64,000 nt of DNA, taken from IMG/VR virus record IMGVR_UViG_2724679237_000005, positions 44,631 to 108,630 of that record; one strand, written 5' to 3'. Source of the DNA: a virus. Taxonomy: Duplodnaviria > Heunggongvirae > Uroviricota > Caudoviricetes. The notes below the pieces were generated by a model that was given only the letters and a program-made list of their open reading frames with translations, searched no databases and was not told the origin of the DNA. Shown here in pieces: positions 31,231-46,400 of this stretch. The position numbers and the translations under genes were made by a program. Position 1 is the first letter of the stretch; every line of letters starts with the position of its first letter.

Positions 31231-31998
31231 ATGGACGATTTATCGGTATACGCGAGATCATTGGATAAGGCTAAATACTATGTTTACTGTCTCTATGATA
31301 CAGAAGACAAGATGAAAAGACCGTTTTACATAGGAAAAGGCAAATCGACTCGTTGTCTCGATCACATCAAGTATCCCGATGACTCTCCCAAATCCATGCG
31401 GATCAAAGAACTTTTGGCTAATAAAAAATTAGGCATAGATATTCTTCGTCATGGTATGGATGAAACCACAGCCAAACTTGTTGAGGCGACATGCATCGAC
31501 CTTATGGGGGTCGGAGAGCTTACGAATAAGGTTCGAGGAAGTGGTTCCATGATGGGCAGAATATCACTGGACGCCTACCATCACTTAGTGCTGCAAGAGG
31601 AAACTGAAATTGCTCCTGAGCACGCCGGTCTTGCCTTCCTGCTAAACAGCACCTACAAGTCAGGAATGTCCGCTCTGGCATTATATGAAGCTACGCGTGG
31701 CGTATGGGCAAAGGTTCCAAGAGACGAGAATCTCAAATATGCCTACGCTACATATGGTGGGCTGATAATGGAAGTTTATCAGATTGAATGCTGGGTCAAA
31801 GCCGGTTCTCAGCAGTACTTTACAAGGGATATAGCTCTTGGCCCCGACACAAAACGTTATGAATTTGTTGGCAGAATAGCCGATGAGCATATTAGAAAAC
31901 TGTATGTAGGCAAATTAATCAAGAAGCCACCAAGCTACGGTAGCCCTTTTGTGAAGGTTGGGATGGTTAGGACTGAACATAGTGTTAGCGCGGCATAA
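31231..31998 (+). CDS. GIY-YIG nuclease domain protein (free-standing homing-endonuclease-like)
   Basis: YVYCLYD...PFYIGKGKS...R...E motif arrangement of GIY-YIG domain at N-terminus; plus-strand, own terminator. Confidence 0.6.
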   Translation: MDDLSVYARSLDKAKYYVYCLYDTEDKMKRPFYIGKGKSTRCLDHIKYPDDSPKSMRIKELLANKKLGIDILRHGMDETTAKLVEATCIDLMGVGELTNKVRGSGSMMGRISLDAYHHLVLQEETEIAPEHAGLAFLLNSTYKSGMSALALYEATRGVWAKVPRDENLKYAYATYGGLIMEVYQIECWVKAGSQQYFTRDIALGPDTKRYEFVGRIADEHIRKLYVGKLIKKPPSYGSPFVKVGMVRTEHSVSAA

Positions 31999-34599: not shown

Positions 34600-34836
34600 T
34601 CAGTTCAGGTGCCCCCACTCACACAGCCTTTCACCTATCGTATTGTGGATAAGCAACTGTCGCTCCGTTTCCTCAGTCATAAAATCCTCTCTACTCACAT
34701 AGATAGGATTTGCAGCATCGCAGAATAGCACGCCTGGAGCCTGCGTCTTAATCACGCACCCATTTATCAAACAGCTCGCGATGAACACCAGAGGCATCTT
34801 TTTGCCGCACTTCATTAACCGTTTCATTTTTGACAT
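34600..34836 (-). CDS. o-spanin (Rz1-like outer-membrane lipoprotein), embedded in Rz frame
   Basis: Lipobox-like FIASC after short signal sequence, Pro/Cys-containing, encoded in alternate frame overlapping the Rz-like gene; start uncertain. Confidence 0.45.
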   Translation of the reverse strand: MSKMKRLMKCGKKMPLVFIASCLINGCVIKTQAPGVLFCDAANPIYVSREDFMTEETERQLLIHNTIGERLCEWGHLN

Positions 34837-34999
34837 CCACTGTGCTTTGAAGTCGTTTTCTGTCTTCCTGTTTTGCCTTCTCTTCCATTGCTCGTCGCGC
34901 CGCATTTCCGCCCATCGTGTAAGCGCCGACCAGAACGAAAAGAACGGCAGCCAGCGTAATCAAAGCAACTTTTAGCTTTGTCATCAGGCTGCCTAGCAT
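34748..34999 (-). CDS. i-spanin (Rz-like)
   Basis: N-terminal TM helix ALITLAAVLFVLVGAYT followed by charged coiled-coil region; sits with embedded lipoprotein ORF next to lysis genes. Confidence 0.55.
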   Translation of the reverse strand: MLGSLMTKLKVALITLAAVLFVLVGAYTMGGNAARRAMEEKAKQEDRKRLQSTVDVKNETVNEVRQKDASGVHRELFDKWVRD

Positions 35000-35000
35000 A

Positions 35001-35720
35001 TTAGACCATCCCTTTCTGGTGTCTTCTTACCTGCGACCAGGCGATAAATCCAGCCACAACAATAGTGGCAATACCGAAGATGATGCGTACTGTATCCCCG
35101 CTAGAGATATGACCTTGTGCTTTATCCATAGCAGCGGAAACCTGCGGCATAACATCGGCCAGCTGCGCCAGACCAATACCTGCTGTAACAGTTGCGCCTG
35201 CTGTTTCTTTAGTTACAGGAACAGCCTTCACGGTTTTCACCGGCTTAACGACGCCAGCTCGACGCAGACCTTCCTCAATAACTTCTGCCGCATACCAGGT
35301 GTTCAGCGTTTTTAGCGGACCTCGCCCATTCTCATGGCGAATGATTGCCTCAACCAAAGGTCGAAGAATGTCGTAATCATGCAGATCGATAATCATGTCT
35401 GCGGTTACACCAACGGCTTTAGACACCTCATTAATGTAGGCGTCAGTATTGTTTTCATTCGGCGGTGCCCAGCGTTCAATAACTTCACGAATGGTATCGA
35501 TACTTGAGCCGTCTTTTGCGCGACGTTTGTCGTGGTAGGTAATTAGAGTCACCGCCAGCGCACGAATCCCCCAAACAGGGTCTTTAAACGTGCAAAAGCG
35601 CGGTTCGTCTGGATTCGCAACCAGACCTTGCCACGGTGATCCTTTATCAAGATTACCGGGGTTATTATTACGAATGCCTCTCGGAGTCTTCATCCTTGAT
35701 CTCCTGTTATTGCAGTCCAT
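35001..35720 (-). CDS. putative endolysin or lysis-associated protein with C-terminal TM helix
   Basis: Position between holin-like and spanin genes; conserved-looking motif GIRNNNPGNL; C-terminal hydrophobic helix; enzymatic class not determinable by eye. Confidence 0.35.
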   Translation of the reverse strand: MDCNNRRSRMKTPRGIRNNNPGNLDKGSPWQGLVANPDEPRFCTFKDPVWGIRALAVTLITYHDKRRAKDGSSIDTIREVIERWAPPNENNTDAYINEVSKAVGVTADMIIDLHDYDILRPLVEAIIRHENGRGPLKTLNTWYAAEVIEEGLRRAGVVKPVKTVKAVPVTKETAGATVTAGIGLAQLADVMPQVSAAMDKAQGHISSGDTVRIIFGIATIVVAGFIAWSQVRRHQKGMV

Positions 35721-36042
35721 TTTTTACGCCATACGCGGCTAACCCCAAAAGCAGTGCAGTAATAATGAACGACGTTATTTTAGAAACAATGCCGCCAAAG
35801 AACCCACTGGAGATGGAATCTAACCGGTTAAGGAGCTTGTCCAGGTTGGAGTGTTGAATACTATGTTGCGCTGGGGTCATATCACCAAAGTAGGTTTTCA
35901 GCTGATCATTGACCTCCTGGCCAATTTCTTCACGTAGCTCTTTGCCTAATTTGCCAACAACCTCCCGAGCAACGATCGCGGCAATACGCTCAACTTGCTC
36001 TGTTGTAACGCCCGCCATCTCGTTCGACATGTTTTCCTCCAT
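35707..36042 (-). CDS. putative holin / small membrane protein
   Basis: C-terminal TM helix ITSFIITALLLGLAAYGV; lysis-cassette position. Confidence 0.35.
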   Translation of the reverse strand: MEENMSNEMAGVTTEQVERIAAIVAREVVGKLGKELREEIGQEVNDQLKTYFGDMTPAQHSIQHSNLDKLLNRLDSISSGFFGGIVSKITSFIITALLLGLAAYGVKNGLQ

Positions 36043-36108
36043 GAAAAGTCAAATCGGGATGGCGGATTTATATCACATTTCACCCTTTTGTTGTAGGTGT
36101 GTACTTAC

Positions 36109-36345
36109 CTACCATTCAGCATTGCAACGGACTGATGAGAAAGCACCTACTCCTACCCATCGCCAGTTATAGATGCTACCCGCTTTGTATAAGGTATAGT
36201 CGTTCACTTTTTTAACAGCATATATGGGTATGACTGTCTCCTGTCCACCAATGATAGCCTCACCATAACATATAGGTGTCGGCAATTTCTGGCAGCCAGT
36301 AAGAGAGAGAACAACAGCTATTGTTAGAAATAATCTTTTCATCAT
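36109..36345 (-). CDS. Cor/Llp-like small outer-membrane lipoprotein (candidate superinfection exclusion)
   Basis: 78 aa, signal peptide with lipobox LTGC, encoded directly downstream of tail fibre genes. Confidence 0.45.
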   Translation of the reverse strand: MMKRLFLTIAVVLSLTGCQKLPTPICYGEAIIGGQETVIPIYAVKKVNDYTLYKAGSIYNWRWVGVGAFSSVRCNAEW

Positions 36346-36352
36346 TTACTCA

Positions 36353-36961
36353 TCAGTTATACAGATTTCTATTTATTACCGGTACTCTGCCATTTACGCT
36401 AAAACTATGGCCGCCATTAAGTTGGTTTACGAATATAGAGCTAACAGTATTTCCATATGCCGCATATCCATAAACCATTGTCATGGCCCCGCCCGGTACT
36501 GGAACCGCGAACACATTTGCATATGTTGGGATTATCGCTGGCGGGTAATCAAAAACATGCCCTCCAGAACTGTTCCACTCCGTATTATTAAGAAAGGTAA
36601 ATGAAAGTGGGATATTTGCCGTATTATAGATCTCCTCTCCTCGCGCATTGAAAAAACTCATGCCCCAAGTTTCTTTTTTGGCTATACCTTTCGAAAATAC
36701 GTATATCGTGGCACTAGAGTCGCTACCCTGACCTCCGAAACTGTAAATCACCTGGTTGTTACGCACTATTCTGTTGGCTATTAATGAAACAGCTTTCGAA
36801 TAGGCAACAAAAATCATCGGTGAACGATCTGGAGATATTTGGGTGTTAAACTCTGTCCCGCCGGACAAAGAAACAACCTGCTTTCTCTGAAAAACGATAG
36901 GAGACAAAGAAGGAGACATCCAGACCTTCCCGTCAGATCGATATATCTTGCTTCCGTACAT
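36353..36961 (-). CDS. tail fibre-associated protein (202 aa)
   Basis: Gly/Ser/Asn-rich, translationally coupled (TAATG) to upstream gene, downstream of side tail fibre. Confidence 0.45.
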   Translation of the reverse strand: MYGSKIYRSDGKVWMSPSLSPIVFQRKQVVSLSGGTEFNTQISPDRSPMIFVAYSKAVSLIANRIVRNNQVIYSFGGQGSDSSATIYVFSKGIAKKETWGMSFFNARGEEIYNTANIPLSFTFLNNTEWNSSGGHVFDYPPAIIPTYANVFAVPVPGGAMTMVYGYAAYGNTVSSIFVNQLNGGHSFSVNGRVPVINRNLYN

Positions 36962-37215
36962 TATTTTTGAAAAACCAATATGTTTAAATTACCACTAGCT
37001 CCAGACCACGAAATGGTATTTCCAGAAACCGTAAGACTTGTGTATTTTCCATTGGTTACGTCCATTATGTAATAGTCGATTCCCAATCCCGCCTCAACCT
37101 CATATGTTCTACTTCCTGAACCAGAGGGAGTAAAATAATCGAGATAATAAACAGGGGCCAACGCATCGACCATCTCCTGTCTTGATGGCGACCAAACCTG
37201 TGCACCATAGCTCAT
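36961..37215 (-). CDS. hypothetical tail-associated protein (84 aa)
   Basis: ORF between fibre gene and 202-aa gene. Confidence 0.4.
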   Translation of the reverse strand: MSYGAQVWSPSRQEMVDALAPVYYLDYFTPSGSGSRTYEVEAGLGIDYYIMDVTNGKYTSLTVSGNTISWSGASGNLNILVFQK

Positions 37216-37275
37216 AAATATATCCTTATACTTTTAAGCAGGGGCTGGTTTAGTTCCAGCCCCGATTGAAGTTGT

Positions 37276-40200
37276 TTATTCTTTAGGTGAATTTAACTTC
37301 GTTTCAAGCTCCTCAACCCTTTTGGTCAATTGCTGAATATGATGAATGAGTGGTACAACCAAACGCTCATACATCACTCCTTCAGCGACCATACCATTTG
37401 AGGAAATATCTCCTGGAGAATCATTATTTGTTGGTTCACGCCAATGGACATATTGCGGGGCAATCTCACCAACCTCTTCAGCAATAAGGCCGTAATACCC
37501 CCAATCCTTTCGGTCACCTCGACAAATTGAACGATACCAAACAGGTCTTAATGACAAAAGTTCATCAGCATATCGATCTTGTAATGTTTCAATATCCTTT
37601 TTATAGCGCCTTGAAGATGTTGAACGCCAAACTGTATTGATACCTGGGTTTGGATCAATGTACATATTGGCACCGCTAGTAGTTGTGCCAATATCCCATA
37701 TAGCAAACCCTCCACTACCGCCTGATTTGACAACCAGTGTTTCAGCAATAATATCCAGGTTGCCACTATAGCCTGTCAGTGATGATCTGCTTGCATAGGA
37801 ACTTAGAAGGTTTGTTACCTCTGTTTTCGTATAAGCATTAAGGTTAGCCGCAGTCAAAGTAATATCGGCAGAGCCATCAAACGCCACACCAGCAATTTTC
37901 CTTGCTGTCTGCAATTTTGTGGCTGTTGCGGCATTACCAGTAGTATTCTGATTACCGGTTGTATTCACACCAGGGATTGAATCCTTAGCGGTATATACCT
38001 GCGCCCACGCTGACCATGCCGCATCAGTGGTATCTCTTCTGGAGCGAATGAAAACCGGCGCATGTGCACCGCTCGTACCACTCCAGCCAATAAGCAACTC
38101 GCCCTCACCAGCAGCACTCGCACCTTTCATGTGCAATACGTTGCCATACGTGGTCGGGTAGCTATTGTTGTACGCCTCGTACATTTGAATGCCAGCAGTA
38201 CCTTGAGTAGAACCGCTTAAAGCCGTAACTCGACCACGAGAAACCAATGTATTAATATTGATATCACCTGAACCATCAAACTTAACACCATTGATGTTTC
38301 TCGCTGTTTGCAACTTCGTAGCTGTTGAAGCATTGCCATTCAAGCTACCATTTACGCCACCAGTAACATTTAGTCCATTACCAATAGACACAACACCGCT
38401 GCTATTATTAATTATAATCGGTCGCAAACTGTTCCATGAACCTAACGTATCTCCTGATGCTGTTAGCATGAAATATGTGCTGCCGCCGTCATTACGGATA
38501 AAGAACCCGTAGTTACCGTAAGCAATGCGGAAACCATTTGCATATTTTGAAACGATCTCACCAGAAGACGTTAACCCTCCAGATAATGTGCCACCTGAAA
38601 GCGGTAATGCTCCTACATCAGAAGCTGTTGGTTTGTTTCTAGTGTTATAAGAACGACGCCAGCCTGGTGCATAATCACTTCCATTGTACACATAAATAAA
38701 TTCCGCATTGTTAACACCACCATGACCCGATGTTGTTGTCGTTGTAACACGAATAGTGTAGTGGCTTGTTGCCTTATTACTAAACACCTCAATCACGGAA
38801 CCAGATAGATCGATCCTACCGCAACCAGTGTCGTCTATATAATTATTGTTGGCGTAAGTCCATGAGCACCGTGCGATCCAATGTTTGTTTGTAAATGCCC
38901 CCTGATTATTTAGCCAAGTTATAAATTGAGCAGTCGTAAATGCCGTTCCGTTACCACTATTTAACCATCCAGCGGCAGCGGTTGGCGCGTTTATATCAGC
39001 CGGCTGAGGCATAAATCCAGTCGTGTAAACCTGCTCCCAACCACTTTCAAAACCATAGCCATCTCTTGAGGAACGGTAGAACAGACCACCATTTTTATAG
39101 TGAGCTTTAATTTGAAGCGTACGGCAACTACCTACACCGGTATAAAAGTTGGCAAGAATATAACTGTCGCCTGTTCTAGTTACATTGTAAGCACCAGATT
39201 CAGCATTCCACGGCACGCCACCATCAGCATCCGCATATGACCCTGTTGCCCTTCTTGCGAAAGCGGCAACATGCGCAGCGGTTAAAGTGATATCAGTAGA
39301 ACCATCAAATGGAACACCGGATATTTTTCTTGCAGTCTGAAGTTTTGTAGCAGTTGCAGCATTACCAGTGGTGTTCTGATTACCCGTAGTGTTTACACCT
39401 GGAAGGTTGATATTTGCAGAACCGTCGAAACCAACTCCACCGATAGATCTTGCCGTCTGCAATTTCGTTGCTGTACTTGCATTACCATTTAATGTTCCGG
39501 TGATCCCACCAGTAACAGACAACGGACCTGAAACTGTTCCTCCGGTTGTTGGCAGTGCTCCAATATCTAACGGCGTCGGTTTCTGATGTGTGCTATACAT
39601 CGTATAAACAACACCATCGGTAACGCTGGAAGGCTTACTCGCTGAATATGTTGGCGATGTATAAATAGAAACTGACGCATTTGCAGTACAATCCCAATGG
39701 ATATTTACACTCGTCGCATAATTGCCAATTTCAACGTAAATATCATATGTATCGCCGGATGTGTTGATCCAGGCGAAATTCGTTAATCCGACAGCTGTAC
39801 GCTTCCACAAAGCACCTGTAATCCCTTTGGGGTTTCCATTGCCTGCTCGTAGAACCAGTTCTGAAATGCCTGCCTGATGTGGGGAGCCGACGTTGTAACC
39901 AGCGCCACCAATCAATGCGATGTAAACGATGGAACTCGCTTGTGGCATTGTAACAGTAGCCAGTTTGAACCACCCGGCCCCGCCAGAGAAAGACATCGTT
40001 ATTGAATTTAAAGTACCAATATCTTTCGGCGTTAATGTGATATCCGCAGTCAGTGCTTTCCCGTTAATTTTTCGGTTAGATGGCACCCTGCTGTTCGCAT
40101 TGTCATTGACTACTTTAACTGCTTTTGGCGTTGCGGCCAGCGATTCACTGGTGCTGTCGACAGCACTGCTAAGTTTCACAACACCTTTAGTTGTAAGGCT

Positions 40201-41574
40201 TGCGTCTTCCATCGCAACTGCACCGGCAATCTCTTCAGCACGATCAGCAGCAGCTTCCGCACGGGTCGCAGCGGATTCAGCAGCAGTTTTGCTCTGAGAT
40301 GCTGCCGTCGCACTGCCTGCCGCCTCTGTTGCTTTCGTGGATGCCGTCGTGGCGCTGCCCTTCGCTGCTGACGCCTGTCTGGTCGCCTCATCTTTTGAAG
40401 CAGACGCAGATGATGCCGATGACGCTGCCGAACTGGCGGACGATGCGGCTGCCGTTTTTGAGGATTCTGCACGGGTTTCCGACGCTTTCGCGTTCGTTTC
40501 GGATGTCTTCGCTGCGGAAGCAGACCTCGCTGCTGCGCTGGCCTGTTCAGTGGCTTCGCCAGCCTTCGTTGTGGCTGTTGAAGCAGACGATGCGGCACTT
40601 TCTGCCGATTTTCCGGCGGCGGTGGCACTGGCTGAGGCCTGCCCGGCACTTGTTGACGCGGCACTGGCAGACGACGCAGCCGCTGTTTTTGAGCCTGCCG
40701 CAGCCGAGGCGCTCTGTCCCGCTGCCGTTTCAGAAGACCTGGCGTTCGTCTCGGACGTTTTTGCCGCCTTCGCGGAATTTCCTGCCGCCGTTGCCGAGGA
40801 AGCGGCATTACTGGCGCTCGAGGCTGCGCTCGTTTCTGATGATTTCGCTGCCTCTTTTGAGGCCGCCGCATCCCGGGCTGAGGTGGCAGCTTCTGACGCC
40901 TTCGTGGTCGCGGTGGATGCAGAAGTGGCTGCAGATTTTTGTGACGCTGCAGCATTCGTTTCAGACGTTTTCGCGGCACCGGCACTGGTGGCCGCCGCGC
41001 TTTTTGAGGACTCTGCAGCGGATGCACTTTGAGACGCTTGAGAGGCTTTTTCTCCAGCGGTATTGGCGCTTTCTGCTGCTGCGGCAGCACTGGCCGCCGC
41101 CTCACGAGCTTTGTCGCCAGCAGCATCAATCGCGTCAGTGTTATTTTTATACCACTCAACGTTTTCGTTGTGCTCGTTGACGATCTGCATTAGCGGCTTA
41201 ACGGTCACTTCTGTACCGTCTTCACGCTCGATTGTCACCTCATCCAGAGCAGTCAACCAACTGCGCATGGACTTGGAATCAGCCGACATACGCGACATTA
41301 GTGCTGTAAAGCGCGCGCTAAACTGTGTTAAGTCGCCTTCATAGGTCGTAATGATTCGGCACGGAACTTCAGACTGAGTTTCGCCGGTATAAGGTTCTGA
41401 GAGAACAATGTTCGTATCACTGGTTACGCGCTTGATCTCATACAGCTTATTGTCGGGGCCAATGACGATCATCCCCGGCAACACACCATTAGCTGTTACG
41501 TTCCAGGCTGTCCCTGCCCCAACCAGAGTATTGCTGCCCTGTGTAAATGTGATAGTACCTTCCCTGTACCACAT
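37276..41574 (-). CDS. stf: side tail fibre (lambda Stf-like) with C-terminal intramolecular chaperone domain
   Basis: Long Ala/Ser/Thr-rich segment closely resembling lambda Stf (AAKTSETNAAASQKSAATSAS...), five or more fibre repeats GNASTATKLQTAR-IxGV-FDGS, C-terminal SSRRYKKDIETL...YGLIAEEV chaperone-like domain. Confidence 0.85.
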   Translation of the reverse strand: MWYREGTITFTQGSNTLVGAGTAWNVTANGVLPGMIVIGPDNKLYEIKRVTSDTNIVLSEPYTGETQSEVPCRIITTYEGDLTQFSARFTALMSRMSADSKSMRSWLTALDEVTIEREDGTEVTVKPLMQIVNEHNENVEWYKNNTDAIDAAGDKAREAAASAAAAAESANTAGEKASQASQSASAAESSKSAAATSAGAAKTSETNAAASQKSAATSASTATTKASEAATSARDAAASKEAAKSSETSAASSASNAASSATAAGNSAKAAKTSETNARSSETAAGQSASAAAGSKTAAASSASAASTSAGQASASATAAGKSAESAASSASTATTKAGEATEQASAAARSASAAKTSETNAKASETRAESSKTAAASSASSAASSASSASASKDEATRQASAAKGSATTASTKATEAAGSATAASQSKTAAESAATRAEAAADRAEEIAGAVAMEDASLTTKGVVKLSSAVDSTSESLAATPKAVKVVNDNANSRVPSNRKINGKALTADITLTPKDIGTLNSITMSFSGGAGWFKLATVTMPQASSIVYIALIGGAGYNVGSPHQAGISELVLRAGNGNPKGITGALWKRTAVGLTNFAWINTSGDTYDIYVEIGNYATSVNIHWDCTANASVSIYTSPTYSASKPSSVTDGVVYTMYSTHQKPTPLDIGALPTTGGTVSGPLSVTGGITGTLNGNASTATKLQTARSIGGVGFDGSANINLPGVNTTGNQNTTGNAATATKLQTARKISGVPFDGSTDITLTAAHVAAFARRATGSYADADGGVPWNAESGAYNVTRTGDSYILANFYTGVGSCRTLQIKAHYKNGGLFYRSSRDGYGFESGWEQVYTTGFMPQPADINAPTAAAGWLNSGNGTAFTTAQFITWLNNQGAFTNKHWIARCSWTYANNNYIDDTGCGRIDLSGSVIEVFSNKATSHYTIRVTTTTTSGHGGVNNAEFIYVYNGSDYAPGWRRSYNTRNKPTASDVGALPLSGGTLSGGLTSSGEIVSKYANGFRIAYGNYGFFIRNDGGSTYFMLTASGDTLGSWNSLRPIIINNSSGVVSIGNGLNVTGGVNGSLNGNASTATKLQTARNINGVKFDGSGDININTLVSRGRVTALSGSTQGTAGIQMYEAYNNSYPTTYGNVLHMKGASAAGEGELLIGWSGTSGAHAPVFIRSRRDTTDAAWSAWAQVYTAKDSIPGVNTTGNQNTTGNAATATKLQTARKIAGVAFDGSADITLTAANLNAYTKTEVTNLLSSYASRSSLTGYSGNLDIIAETLVVKSGGSGGFAIWDIGTTTSGANMYIDPNPGINTVWRSTSSRRYKKDIETLQDRYADELLSLRPVWYRSICRGDRKDWGYYGLIAEEVGEIAPQYVHWREPTNNDSPGDISSNGMVAEGVMYERLVVPLIHHIQQLTKRVEELETKLNSPKE

Positions 41575-41666: not shown

Positions 41667-44600
41667 TTACAGAAGGCCAATTCTTACTCGTAGGACGTTG
41701 TTATCGTCATAAACGTCAATCCGCTGACCATTTATGACCAGTCGCCCATTACCCCCGCTATTACCGTTGATCTCAAGCGTTCCATTTTTGCCGAACCGCC
41801 ATCCAGATCTACCGCTAACAAAATTGGTAGATTGCAGATCGCCTACTTTTGCATTGGTGATTGTGCCATCCTTGATATACGCACCATTCATATAGGCGAT
41901 ACTGTTTTCGATAACAAATGGCGTGGTGATCTTCCCGTTAACAGAGTTGACCAAACCAAACCTGTCAGCCTGCACCAAAAACTGAGAAAGGCCAGTGGTG
42001 TCGATACCAAGCGCAATACCAGCAACATACTTCTGCCCTCCGCTCGTTGAAGTTTCCATTTTCAACGTCCACGCGGTTGACACTTTTTTGTTGGTATCAG
42101 CAATAGCTGTTGCCTGCTGTTGAATTGTCGCGGTATTTCCATCCACCTCTGCTTTCAGAGTATCGATTCGCCCACTCAGAGCATTATCTGCCTGCGTTCT
42201 CGCTGTCGTTTCAGTTGTTACCGCCGCGGAAATGTTGGCTGCCGTTTGAGACTCTAAGTTTGTGATTTGAGTCGCCAATGCAGCATCTTGCTCTGTACGC
42301 GTTTTCGTTTCGGTTGCTACAGCCGCTTTAATATCCTCTTTGTATTGAGAGGTCAGCTTGGTGATCTGAGACGACAACGCCGAGTCAGCATCAGTTCGAG
42401 CCTGCGTTTCAACTGCAACGGCCGCACTAATATCTTTCGCTGTCTGTGCTTTTAAACTTGAAACCTCTTTTGTTAAAGCGGTATCACCATCAGCACGAGC
42501 CGTTGTTTCTCTGGCAAGAGATGCCTCGAGATCATTAGCTTTTGCTGTAAGAGACGAAATCTGAGTGGACAATGCACTATCGGCATCAGTCCTTGCCTTT
42601 GTCTCTACAGCAACCGCTGCGGCAATATCAGTTCCGGTTTGTGCTCGCAGGCTGTTAATTTCTCGTGAGAGCGCCTGGTCAGCACTTGCTCTGGCCTCCT
42701 GCTCCTGAGTGATGGCAGCGGATATATCACCGTCAACCTTTGACTGAAGCTGGTTTATTTGTTTGGCTAACGCAGAGTCCCCGCTTGCTCGGGCCTCCTG
42801 CTCACTACGTATTGCAGCAGAAATATCATCATCAACCTTTGCCTGAAGTTGGGTGATCTGGCTTGCCAGAGCCGAATCTTCCGTTGCTCGGGCTTCTTGC
42901 TCTTCCTTAATAGCTGCGACGATATCGTTGCTTACTTTCGACTCAAGCTGAGTGATCTGTGTCGTCAGAGCTTCATCGGCAGATGTGCGAGCCTCCTGCT
43001 CTGTACTAATCGCCGCGCTGATATCTCCTTCAAACTTAGATTGCAGCTGAGTGACACGCTTTGCCAACGCTTCATCGCCATCGGCACGAGCGGTGGACTC
43101 TTCCAGAATACTGGCCTTAATGTCTTCGCCAATTTCTACGCGAATTTCCTCAACCTTCGTGGCCATTGCAGACATATCATCAGCAAAGGTTTTCTGTGTT
43201 GTTGCGATCTTCGCGTTATTGACCATCTGCTTGTGCTGGTCTTCATCTTGACGAAGAGCCAGGTCAATATTTGTTTTGGCTAACGCCTCAATGTTCGTAG
43301 TCAGTTCTGCACTGGCACGATCGACCTCTGCAACCGTCTTTTTCATTTCTTCAACGGCAGCGGAGCTTTCCTCTACCGTTGACTGCAACACTTCCAGTTG
43401 TTTAGCGTTTGCAGCATCGCCTTCAACACGAGCCTCGCTTTCCTTAGCAATAAGAGCCGCCGCTTCATCTCTTGCAGCCTTTATTGCCTCGACTGTATTA
43501 GCGAGAGCTTTATCGTGTTCAGATACGGTGTTTTCGATTTCAACAATTGCAGCATCAGTAGCATCAATTTTTTCAAACGCTTCATTGACCTTGTCGATCG
43601 TTGCCGAAACCTCACCTTTAAGCTCGGTTTGTGCGTTCTCCAAAGCATCGCTACGCTCGTTGAATTTTATTTCAAAACCCGCGAGGTTATCGCTGAACTG
43701 CTTATCTAATTCAGCTATATCTTCCTTAACGTCGTTTACCGACCCCTCCAAAGATTCGACGCTCTGGTTGATATGCTCATTTAACTCGTCAACTGCTTCT
43801 TGAGAGGCTTTGCTGTTGATGTCCTCAAGCAGAGCCTGACCAAGCTCGGAAGATGTAATTTTGCCAGCCAGGAACGACAGTACATCGCGAGTTGTCGCCT
43901 CTGTACCCAAGTTTGAGTTCGGAGGGCTTAACATACCTCGCTTGTTCGATGCTCGAACCCAGTAATACCACGTTTCGCTATCCCCAAGACCAGCATGTGT
44001 AAAGGTGGTGCTTGCAGACTCTGCGATCAGTTTCGCCGTATCCAGATTGTTGGTCTGGGATGCGTAAACATTAATGTGATCAAGGTCTACCGAATCTGGA
44101 TTAACCCAATTCAGTATCACATTACGATAGTCTCCAACGGCCGTTAATGACGTTGGTGCATCCGGCGGTGTCATTGTGCCCAGCACCTGATAAACGGTAC
44201 TGATAATTTCTGTTTTTTTACCGTTGAATGAAACCGCATACAGTTGGAAGTCGTAGCGTCCATTCTCCGCGACATTAACGATTTCGTATTGCTCTTCGGT
44301 TACACGCGCCGATTGCCAGTTCGATACATTGTTTTCATCAGAACGTCGCCAACTGATCCAATACTCTGGAGATTTTCCTTCCCATGTTGCAGTCAGTTTT
44401 ACTGACAGGTTGCCCGGGCTTGAGAGATAAGTCCCTTCAGTGATTTGCAGATTAGATGGCTTGGAGTAAGTTGGGTCCAATACCGTCGTATTCTGCGGGA
44501 TCAGCGTTGCGCCATTGTCGATTGCCTCATATTTAGACGGATTGTTCTCAACAGCGGTGATGTCAAAGCTACCCGGCGTTTCCCCCTGCGCGATGTTAAC

Positions 44601-46400
44601 GATGCGAACGCGCATAGGTTCGAGATCTGGTTCTGTAATTGTCCAGACACCGTTCAAAACAGGCGTTTCCGCTGACGACAGGGCTTTTGAAAACGTAACC
44701 TTTGTTATGTTTTCGCCAGTTTCAAGAACATCGCGTTCAACGATTTTGCCTTCCTGATTCAATATCCGAATAAAGCTGCCGCTTTTAGCTAACGACACAG
44801 GCGCATCGAGAGTGATGCTGTTTTTGGTAAACTCCACAATTCGACCGGAGTTACGTTTACCTGCACGATATTTGTTCTGAATCAGAACGGTTTCACCAGG
44901 CATCAGAAATGAGGCGTCTAAGCCGGCAGTAAATGTAATTACATCCGACTCCATTCTGGCGGTATACAAAAGCCACAAACCAACTCGGTGAGCCTGGCCT
45001 CGGCTTGTACATCCAAATGCTACGACTTCTGTTTTACGCTCACCATAACGGCGCATTGCGTCCTGATCTTCAACGTATTCGATGTTTTGCTTATAACCGT
45101 CCTCCTTGTTGTTGTAGGTTACGAGCGCAACGGATGGGCGATCTTTACGCGCAGAACCTTTATAGGTAAACAGTCCATCTTTGACGTTGGAGTTGGTAAA
45201 CATCATTACCGGATCTGATGGGCTATCCTGCATGATGTTAACCATGCCACCAGCCCAAAACACCATGCCGCGGAATGCACCGGCAATATCCTGAATTAAT
45301 CGGTATGCGTCTTGTCGACTGGTGATCTGCGTATTGATTGCAAAGCGTTTCTCTTTACCCCCAAAGCCATCATCGACCTCTTCGTCACAATATCGACCAA
45401 TCTGGTAGAGCTGGCCGAGGTCAATCATGGATTCCGACACAAATTGCCCAAGACCATACCGAGTATTGGTAAGCAAATCGTAGAGAATCCACGCAGGGTT
45501 TGAAGAAGACAACAGCTTAAAAGTACCGTCCCATACGCCGACATAAGTATTGGTGTATTCGTTGTAGTTTGACGGTACTCGGATTTTGATACCGCGCACC
45601 AAATACGAACGGGAAGGCATTGTGCTACCAAACTGCTCTGAATTGACCTTCAAGCCAACAAGAGCAGAGTTAGGGTAGTTCATTGGCGTGTCGACAATCT
45701 CACCTATGGAATCAACCCATGTGTCGTTGTAGAGGTACTGGCTACTGTTATCATCTGTAAGACGAATCACCCTAACCTTGTATGCACGACCAGGCTTAGG
45801 TAGTTTCAGCTCATAGCTACGGTAATACACGCCTGTTTTCTTTGCCGTTAGCGTGATATCAACGCTTTTTTCACCTTCAGCGACCACATCTACAAATGTT
45901 GAGTCGCCATTTGCTATCTGGAACTTGTACTCAACAGTCGTACCGTTCGTGTCACCAGTTTTTTTATCTATGCTTCGCAAAGAAGGAAACTTCATGATGA
46001 CACGAACCCGATCAGCTTCATCGTTATCGATTGAAACCGTTACATAATGTGTTTTTTTTAACTGGATATTGACGGATTTAGGCGTTTCAACGAAATCAAA
46101 GCCAGACATTGGAGTCTGGTCTTGTGAACCGTCGCGAAAATCCCATGTGATTCCGCTGAAGTTGGAGGAACCGTCTTCATTTACAATCGGCAGATCGTCG
46201 ATAAAAATAGATCTTGCGCCATTTACTAAGCCGCCAATTACCCCTTCCCCAAGAAGATCGAGGATAGCGGCCATTGCACGAGAATTTACGGTATCGTCGG
46301 CTTCAACCGGTGTACGGCTGGAGCTTTTGCTGCTTTTTTTACCACCCGCACCGGCAATAAACAGCGGTAGCTTTTTCTTCTTGAACTGTTCCATGTTCAA
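41667..46400 (-). CDS. J: central tail fibre / tip attachment protein J-like
   Basis: Strong similarity to lambda J core (ALVGLKVNSEQFGS, AFGCTSRGQAHRVGLWLL, KYVAGIALGIDT...SQFLV); contains a run of 33-aa coiled-coil repeats. Confidence 0.8.
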   Translation of the reverse strand: MNMEQFKKKKLPLFIAGAGGKKSSKSSSRTPVEADDTVNSRAMAAILDLLGEGVIGGLVNGARSIFIDDLPIVNEDGSSNFSGITWDFRDGSQDQTPMSGFDFVETPKSVNIQLKKTHYVTVSIDNDEADRVRVIMKFPSLRSIDKKTGDTNGTTVEYKFQIANGDSTFVDVVAEGEKSVDITLTAKKTGVYYRSYELKLPKPGRAYKVRVIRLTDDNSSQYLYNDTWVDSIGEIVDTPMNYPNSALVGLKVNSEQFGSTMPSRSYLVRGIKIRVPSNYNEYTNTYVGVWDGTFKLLSSSNPAWILYDLLTNTRYGLGQFVSESMIDLGQLYQIGRYCDEEVDDGFGGKEKRFAINTQITSRQDAYRLIQDIAGAFRGMVFWAGGMVNIMQDSPSDPVMMFTNSNVKDGLFTYKGSARKDRPSVALVTYNNKEDGYKQNIEYVEDQDAMRRYGERKTEVVAFGCTSRGQAHRVGLWLLYTARMESDVITFTAGLDASFLMPGETVLIQNKYRAGKRNSGRIVEFTKNSITLDAPVSLAKSGSFIRILNQEGKIVERDVLETGENITKVTFSKALSSAETPVLNGVWTITEPDLEPMRVRIVNIAQGETPGSFDITAVENNPSKYEAIDNGATLIPQNTTVLDPTYSKPSNLQITEGTYLSSPGNLSVKLTATWEGKSPEYWISWRRSDENNVSNWQSARVTEEQYEIVNVAENGRYDFQLYAVSFNGKKTEIISTVYQVLGTMTPPDAPTSLTAVGDYRNVILNWVNPDSVDLDHINVYASQTNNLDTAKLIAESASTTFTHAGLGDSETWYYWVRASNKRGMLSPPNSNLGTEATTRDVLSFLAGKITSSELGQALLEDINSKASQEAVDELNEHINQSVESLEGSVNDVKEDIAELDKQFSDNLAGFEIKFNERSDALENAQTELKGEVSATIDKVNEAFEKIDATDAAIVEIENTVSEHDKALANTVEAIKAARDEAAALIAKESEARVEGDAANAKQLEVLQSTVEESSAAVEEMKKTVAEVDRASAELTTNIEALAKTNIDLALRQDEDQHKQMVNNAKIATTQKTFADDMSAMATKVEEIRVEIGEDIKASILEESTARADGDEALAKRVTQLQSKFEGDISAAISTEQEARTSADEALTTQITQLESKVSNDIVAAIKEEQEARATEDSALASQITQLQAKVDDDISAAIRSEQEARASGDSALAKQINQLQSKVDGDISAAITQEQEARASADQALSREINSLRAQTGTDIAAAVAVETKARTDADSALSTQISSLTAKANDLEASLARETTARADGDTALTKEVSSLKAQTAKDISAAVAVETQARTDADSALSSQITKLTSQYKEDIKAAVATETKTRTEQDAALATQITNLESQTAANISAAVTTETTARTQADNALSGRIDTLKAEVDGNTATIQQQATAIADTNKKVSTAWTLKMETSTSGGQKYVAGIALGIDTTGLSQFLVQADRFGLVNSVNGKITTPFVIENSIAYMNGAYIKDGTITNAKVGDLQSTNFVSGRSGWRFGKNGTLEINGNSGGNGRLVINGQRIDVYDDNNVLRVRIGLL

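Follow-up and report, generated by a model that had tools for sequence, protein, structure and literature searches.

The question raised by this locus is what role is played by a 78-amino-acid (aa) lipoprotein whose gene lies between the tail fibre and lysis genes of a tailed virus (Caudoviricetes). The stretch analysed (the window) comprises 64,000 nucleotides (nt), positions 44,631 to 108,630 of IMG/VR record IMGVR_UViG_2724679237_000005, and is an SSU5-like phage-plasmid. The gene, cor, occupies 36109-36345 on the minus strand (stop codon 36109-36111), where the order of genes is J, side fibre, an 84-aa gene, a 202-aa gene, cor, holin, endolysin and Rz/Rz1. The original prediction, made from the letters alone, had proposed a receptor-blocking exclusion lipoprotein of the Cor or Llp type. 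This proposal is supported by the sequence family of the protein and by its place in a cor cassette, the function itself being predicted from sequence.

The 78-aa protein almost certainly belongs to the Cor family. It matched the curated NCBIfam equivalog NF047972, “phage exclusion lipoprotein Cor”, at 80.6 bits against a cut-off of 31 (E 6e-23; protein residues 2-75, profile positions 1-77 of 78) and PHROG 1119, “Cor superinfection exclusion protein”, from end to end (E 8.9e-31; protein residues 2-78, profile positions 1-78 of 78), so that a comparison with the Cor family, suggested as a check at the outset, came out in favour of the assignment. The family is absent from Pfam, where the sole match was the lipobox model LPAM_1 (residues 2-19), which at 17.2 bits fell slightly under its cut-off of 20. 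An identical product in RefSeq (WP_050480933.1) is labelled “cor: phage exclusion lipoprotein Cor” and occurs on ~100 kb E. coli plasmids. As the gene is an annotated member of a known family, its identification is already known rather than new, and the value of its recognition as a Cor-type exclusion gene by a reader of the raw sequence, from lipobox and position, is confirmatory.

Cor homologs were found by tblastn in 193 phage records at E <= 1e-3, the best matches being with SSU5 (59% identity; labelled Cor-like in GenBank JQ965645) and with Stx2 phage 86 and POCJ13 (58%), followed by the HK022 group (47%) and by N15, phi80 and ES18 (42%). A single-sequence search of a 5.8-billion-protein collection returned 4 matches; its word index is poor for a 78-aa query, so an alignment was used instead, giving 364 Cor homologs at the same threshold. 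In an alignment of the window Cor with 112 homologs (113 sequences), the lipobox C18 together with C26, G56 and C74 were invariant, and G33/G34, A55, W61, W63, V64 and F69, each at least 90% conserved in the family, were kept in the window protein. The Cor proteins of phi80, N15, HK022, mEp167, ES18 and T1 are like the window Cor in family, size, lipobox Cys, two further conserved Cys and an NW(R/Q)WV motif. The open reading frame is a real gene, far beyond chance, as judged from the profile matches, the homolog counts and the pattern of substitution, the proportion of non-synonymous differences from the SSU5 ortholog being 0.28 and that of synonymous differences 0.85.

The 78-aa product, MMKRLFLTIAVVLSLTGCQKLPTPICYGEAIIGGQETVIPIYAVKKVNDYTLYKAGSIYNWRWVGVGAFSSVRCNAEW, has the N-terminus MMKRLFLTIAVVLSLTGC. 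Homologs open with one Met only, the next residue being K, R, G or Y; the second ATG of cor, which would give a 77-aa product, may accordingly be the true start. Residues 1-17 (36295-36345, minus strand) form a lipoprotein signal peptide with K3 and R4 in its n-region, then a hydrophobic core and then the lipobox L15-T16-G17-C18; in phi80 Cor the annotated signal peptide aligns with this segment and the annotated lipid-modified Cys with C18. The 78-aa reading frame, signal peptide and LTGC lipobox described in the original prediction therefore lie exactly at 36109-36345, and the strand, which had been left unstated, is minus. The residue at +2 after the lipobox Cys is Gln19, not Asp. In E. coli the Lol sorting rule relates the +2 residue to outer-membrane targeting, and a Gln at this position predicts that Cor would be targeted to the outer membrane. 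The mature lipoprotein, Cys18-Trp78 (36112-36294, minus strand), is a small beta protein in which the conserved Cys26 and Cys74 become Cys9 and Cys57.

Cor and Llp of phage T5 have been predicted to have one common fold (bioRxiv 10.64898/2026.03.26.714494; PMC13164509), and the model obtained here reproduces this independently for the window protein. An AlphaFold2 model built on the homolog alignment was confident, with a predicted local distance difference test score (pLDDT) of 86.7; its best structural match was the FhuA-bound form of Llp, and by this model Cor would share the Llp fold. Foldseek of the model against the PDB gave no significant match, and a PDB sequence search with Cor gave nothing relevant. 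The mature Cys9 and Cys57 of Cor correspond to the Cys11-Cys58 disulphide of Llp (PMC9586334) and are a putative disulphide pair in Cor. Like Cor, Llp (PDB 8A60, 7QJF) is a small periplasm-facing outer-membrane lipoprotein with one disulphide, and its gene adjoins that of a receptor-binding protein; unlike the window gene, llp belongs to the early genes of a virulent phage and its partner is pb5, not a gp23-type protein. A comparison with Llp, also proposed as a check, thus held for the fold, whereas neither detectable sequence similarity between Cor and T5 Llp nor a neighbouring gene for a pb5-type receptor-binding protein was found. No structural similarity of Cor to Rtp45 (PDB 9RPS) was found. 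Rtp45/SE-Oeko and its partner Rtp44/RBP-Oeko, from small siphophages (PDB 9RPS, 9RPT), target LptDE; Rtp45 is a protein of ~6 kDa with a long hairpin that enters the LptD lumen (PMC12685063), and RBP-Oeko shares 12% identity with the 202-aa protein of the window.

The two genes directly upstream of cor complete a three-gene set that has been described as the “cor cassette” (PMC13164509). The first, at 36961-37215 on the minus strand, encodes an 84-aa gp22-like protein that matched PHROG 557, “outer membrane protein” (E 1.3e-24), with identities of 69% to SSU5_023 and 25-28% to gp22 of N15, phi80, T1 and ES18. The second, at 36353-36961 on the minus strand, encodes a 202-aa gp23-like protein that matched PHROG 425, “membrane associated protein”; its predicted fold is that of a solved siphophage receptor-binding protein, and on this model it is probably the matching receptor-binding protein of the cassette. 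The 84-aa gene ends and the 202-aa gene begins with a 1-nt overlap of stop and start, an arrangement also found in genes 22 and 23 of N15, and the order PHROG 557, PHROG 425, cor is that of the gp22-gp23-cor set of N15, phi80, T1 and ES18. The original prediction had placed cor after the side fibre and two accessory genes and before the lysis cassette; the position was right, while the two genes are probably not fibre accessory or assembly genes but gp22 and gp23 homologs. In RefSeq and in the SSU5 record the 202-aa gene starts at an internal Met, giving 188 aa. The longer N-terminus, MYGSKIYRSDGKVW (36919-36961, minus strand), aligns with the gp23 N-termini of N15, phi80 and T1, and this alignment, together with the 1-nt stop overlap shared with N15, indicates that the public start is probably too short.

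PMC13164509 reports, on the authority of Wietzorrek et al. 2006, that use of FhuA goes with possession of the full cassette. Loci of this kind were described in the BASEL paper as bona fide receptor-binding protein loci encoded with cognate exclusion proteins (PMC8594841), which supports a reading in which the present locus encodes first a receptor-binding protein and then the exclusion lipoprotein that goes with it, and the same logic of pairing is seen in T5 pb5/llp and Rtp rtp44/rtp45 (PMC12685063). The cassettes of phi80, N15, T1 and ES18 lie downstream of tail tip or fibre genes, as in the window, although the window cassette follows the side fibre and that of the known Cor phages follows J. 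The three genes (36109-37215) have a guanine-plus-cytosine (GC) content of 41-42.5%, compared with ~48-49% in the flanking fibre and lysis genes, and the proportion of non-synonymous differences from SSU5 is 0.17-0.28 in the cassette compared with 0.02-0.04 in the adjacent holin and endolysin. On its upstream side the cassette is bounded by a GC-rich hairpin read from the minus strand at 37241-37263, between the fibre stop and the 84-aa gene (GGGGCTGG-aactaaa-CCAGCCCC; 8-bp stem, 7-nt loop), which has no T-run and fails the terminator criteria of our scan; in T1 an annotated terminator occupies the equivalent place between J and the gp22 homolog.

A function of Cor in receptor-blocking exclusion is accordingly suggested by family and context, and we regard it as highly probable; localisation, target and phenotype are what we infer from them. 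The precursor would be exported, lipid-modified at Cys18 and cleaved by signal peptidase II, as its sequence predicts, after which the disulphide-stapled beta domain of ~60 residues would face the periplasm from the outer membrane. There Cor would bind the periplasmic face of the terminal receptor of the phage, most likely the TonB-dependent transporter FhuA. For Llp this mechanism has been solved and consists of periplasmic binding to FhuA and allosteric loop closure (PMC9586334); by analogy, Cor binding would lock the transporter with its extracellular loops closed to the phage receptor-binding protein. Superinfection by the same phage and by other phages using that receptor would be blocked, and progeny would be kept from waste on the debris of lysed cells.

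As the target, FhuA is given about an even chance, while another TonB-dependent transporter is a tentative second candidate and something else appears improbable. FhuA is preferred for three reasons. The curated family NF047972 was defined on FhuA blockers. The Cors of the FhuA-dependent phages HK022, N15, phi80 and ES18 share 60-79% identity with one another, 42-47% with the window Cor and 35-37% with T1 Cor, so that T1 Cor, itself a FhuA blocker, is farther from the lambdoid Cors than the window protein is. Lastly, in a neighbour-joining tree of 121 sampled Cor sequences the clade of the window Cor fell, with midpoint rooting, inside a group bracketed by the FhuA-type Cors of T1 and the lambdoid phages.

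The points that weigh against a FhuA-directed exclusion protein serving the lysogen concern the timing of expression, the receptor and a relative without the cassette. As regards timing, expression of cor in the lysogen is unsupported. It is a serious possibility, to which we give somewhat less than even weight, that Cor is a late function of the lytic cycle only, co-transcribed with the tail and lysis genes, and does not provide lysogen exclusion from the resident plasmid prophage. The cor start lies 7 nt past the stop of the upstream gene (11 nt in SSU5, which has the same orientation and tight spacing), and cor shares its strand with the tail and lysis genes. A crude consensus scan found no promoter-like site upstream of cor, where a weak or internal promoter could escape it, and no terminator between cor and the holin gene; the scan gave no site attributable to cor and overall fewer sites than expected by chance. 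In contrast, a spacer of 111 nt precedes cor in phi80 and N15, phi80 cor also has a promoter annotated as its own, and cor of T1 and ES18 lies on the strand opposite to the gp22 and gp23 homologs. From spacing, strand and the scan, cor may serve chiefly late in the cycle, to protect progeny from debris, more than as an exclusion gene expressed by the lysogen. However, a weak internal promoter or read-through could supply enough lipoprotein, and the cassette is set apart, by the hairpin after the fibre and by its lower GC content, as a separable unit that may be under separate control.

As regards the receptor, a rival that we consider possible, though on balance unlikely, retains Cor as a Cor-family exclusion lipoprotein and gives it a target other than FhuA, such as BtuB or another TonB-dependent transporter, so that the cassette would be a pair of receptor-binding and exclusion proteins of different specificity. 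Unlike the Cors of phi80, N15, HK022, mEp167, ES18 and T1, with which it shares 28-47% identity, the window Cor forms a small separate clade with those of SSU5 and Stx2-86 (9 of the 121 sequences in the tree), and it departs from the family at five positions that are at least 90% conserved (V39I, R45K, Q50Y, P58I and F59Y). Identity of the 84-aa and 202-aa proteins to the alleles of FhuA-using phages is no more than 21-28%, against 35-76% among those alleles, and the receptor could therefore differ; the two proteins are as distant from these alleles as are those of Stx2-86, which stand beside lom and not beside cor. Cor-like proteins also accompany phages that use BtuB (PMC13164509), and the closest Cor relatives in Stx-type prophages follow a Gp38_N adhesin gene. 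SSU5, the sole relative studied, reportedly uses the lipopolysaccharide core by means of its gp22 adhesin (PMC4138488, PMC12312913); the literature on the close relative PhiR41_1 yielded nothing useful, and the LF82/Cyrano paper holds no receptor data. On the other side, T1 Cor blocks FhuA despite its greater distance from the lambdoid Cors, the sole curated model, built on Cor of FhuA-dependent phages, was passed easily, and the best structural match is Llp in its FhuA-bound form.

As regards the relative without the cassette, the phage-plasmid Cyrano of E. coli has neither the 84-aa gene, the 202-aa gene nor cor, even though the two J proteins match from end to end at 98.6% identity; homology to Cyrano stops at 36111 and returns at 39284, within the fibre. 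At least one relative can therefore do without the cassette. Should the terminal receptor-binding protein be the 202-aa protein, host binding by Cyrano is unexplained. A further proposal, that the SSU5-type cassette is an exchangeable module for the terminal receptor, specific for something other than FhuA, and belongs to the late tail-lysis operon instead of being a lysogenic-conversion moron, is in our view doubtful. Were it true, the resident plasmid would not protect its host, and relatives lacking the cassette, like Cyrano, would use a different route of entry despite a near-identical J.

The two remaining alternatives have next to no probability and were rejected on the basis of family, fold and context. 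A part in the lysis machinery, for instance as an o-spanin-like protein, would suit a small outer-membrane lipoprotein encoded directly upstream of holin, endolysin and Rz, but an Rz (34748-34999; PHROG 1026) and an Rz1 (within 34600-34905; PHROG 1275) are already present in the lysis cassette, searches of Pfam, PHROG and NCBIfam gave no spanin family match for Cor, and the lysis cassette of Cyrano, at 94% DNA identity, does without cor. A virion or tail-fibre assembly component with no role in exclusion would agree with the tail-fibre region and the apparent co-transcription with structural genes, but with a lipoprotein signal peptide the protein is sent to the envelope and not to the cytoplasm, where virions are assembled, and family and fold indicate Cor/Llp.

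The J-like tip protein is encoded at 41667-46400 and the 1432-aa side tail fibre at 37276-41574, both on the minus strand; the fibre carries a Gp34_trimer domain and a C-terminal Peptidase_S74 chaperone domain (Pfam), and its distal part is unlike the fibres of Cyrano and SSU5. The first lysis gene, 66 nt downstream of cor, encodes the holin (35707-36042, minus strand; PHROG 5093), whose counterparts in Cyrano and SSU5 are annotated as holin. It is followed by the endolysin (35001-35720, minus strand; PHROG 873), whose N-terminal domain is transglycosylase-like and gives matches to tape-measure and injection proteins as well, and whose C-terminal segment is hydrophobic; its ortholog is named plainly “membrane protein” in RefSeq. 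The lysis region shares 94% DNA identity with Cyrano and 83% with the Salmonella phage-plasmid SSU5. The latter is collinear with the window over 34641-37215 (75.7% DNA identity), a span that takes in cor, the two genes upstream of it and the lysis genes, and its SSU5_025 “Cor-like protein” is the positional ortholog of the window Cor; SSU5 has in addition a “tail fiber adhesin” gene ahead of the cassette, which the window does not have.

A 1.6-kb stretch bearing cor is 98-99.5% identical to E. coli plasmids of ~100-113 kb and was complete in 66 of 5,426 complete E. coli genomes, every time on a plasmid. In one plasmid with an identical Cor (NZ_CP025870.1; L009 8771-10209), IS2 lies inside the side-fibre gene, which is intact in the window; by reason of this insertion that relative is probably defective as a phage, yet it keeps cor. 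The closest Cor relatives, which are 57-58% identical and whose cluster is listed on 861 contigs, are encoded in Stx-type (Sepvirinae) prophages directly after a Gp38_N-type adhesin gene (L010-L013 5001-5228 and L005 5986-6213), and in these prophages a gp22/gp23-like pair comes after a Phage_Tail_Tip protein and before lom. Given these separate places, Cor and the gp22/gp23 pair are not always linked. Elsewhere in the window, a GIY-YIG (LEM-3-like) gene lies on the opposite, plus strand (31231-31998) between replication and partition genes, a place at which it was not seen in the annotations of SSU5 or Cyrano.

Among Enterobacteriaceae, phage-plasmids of the SSU5 type are common, and resistance genes are found on some of them (PMC9600943). 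Two widespread proteins that go by the names “hypothetical” or “membrane” might be better annotated with the aid of the fold match of the gp23-like protein, and the gp23-like protein itself offers a lead, open to testing, on the protein receptor that SSU5-like phages use. A receptor-blocking lipoprotein such as Cor could shape which phages infect strains that carry these elements, including therapeutic phages that use FhuA or other TonB-dependent transporters.
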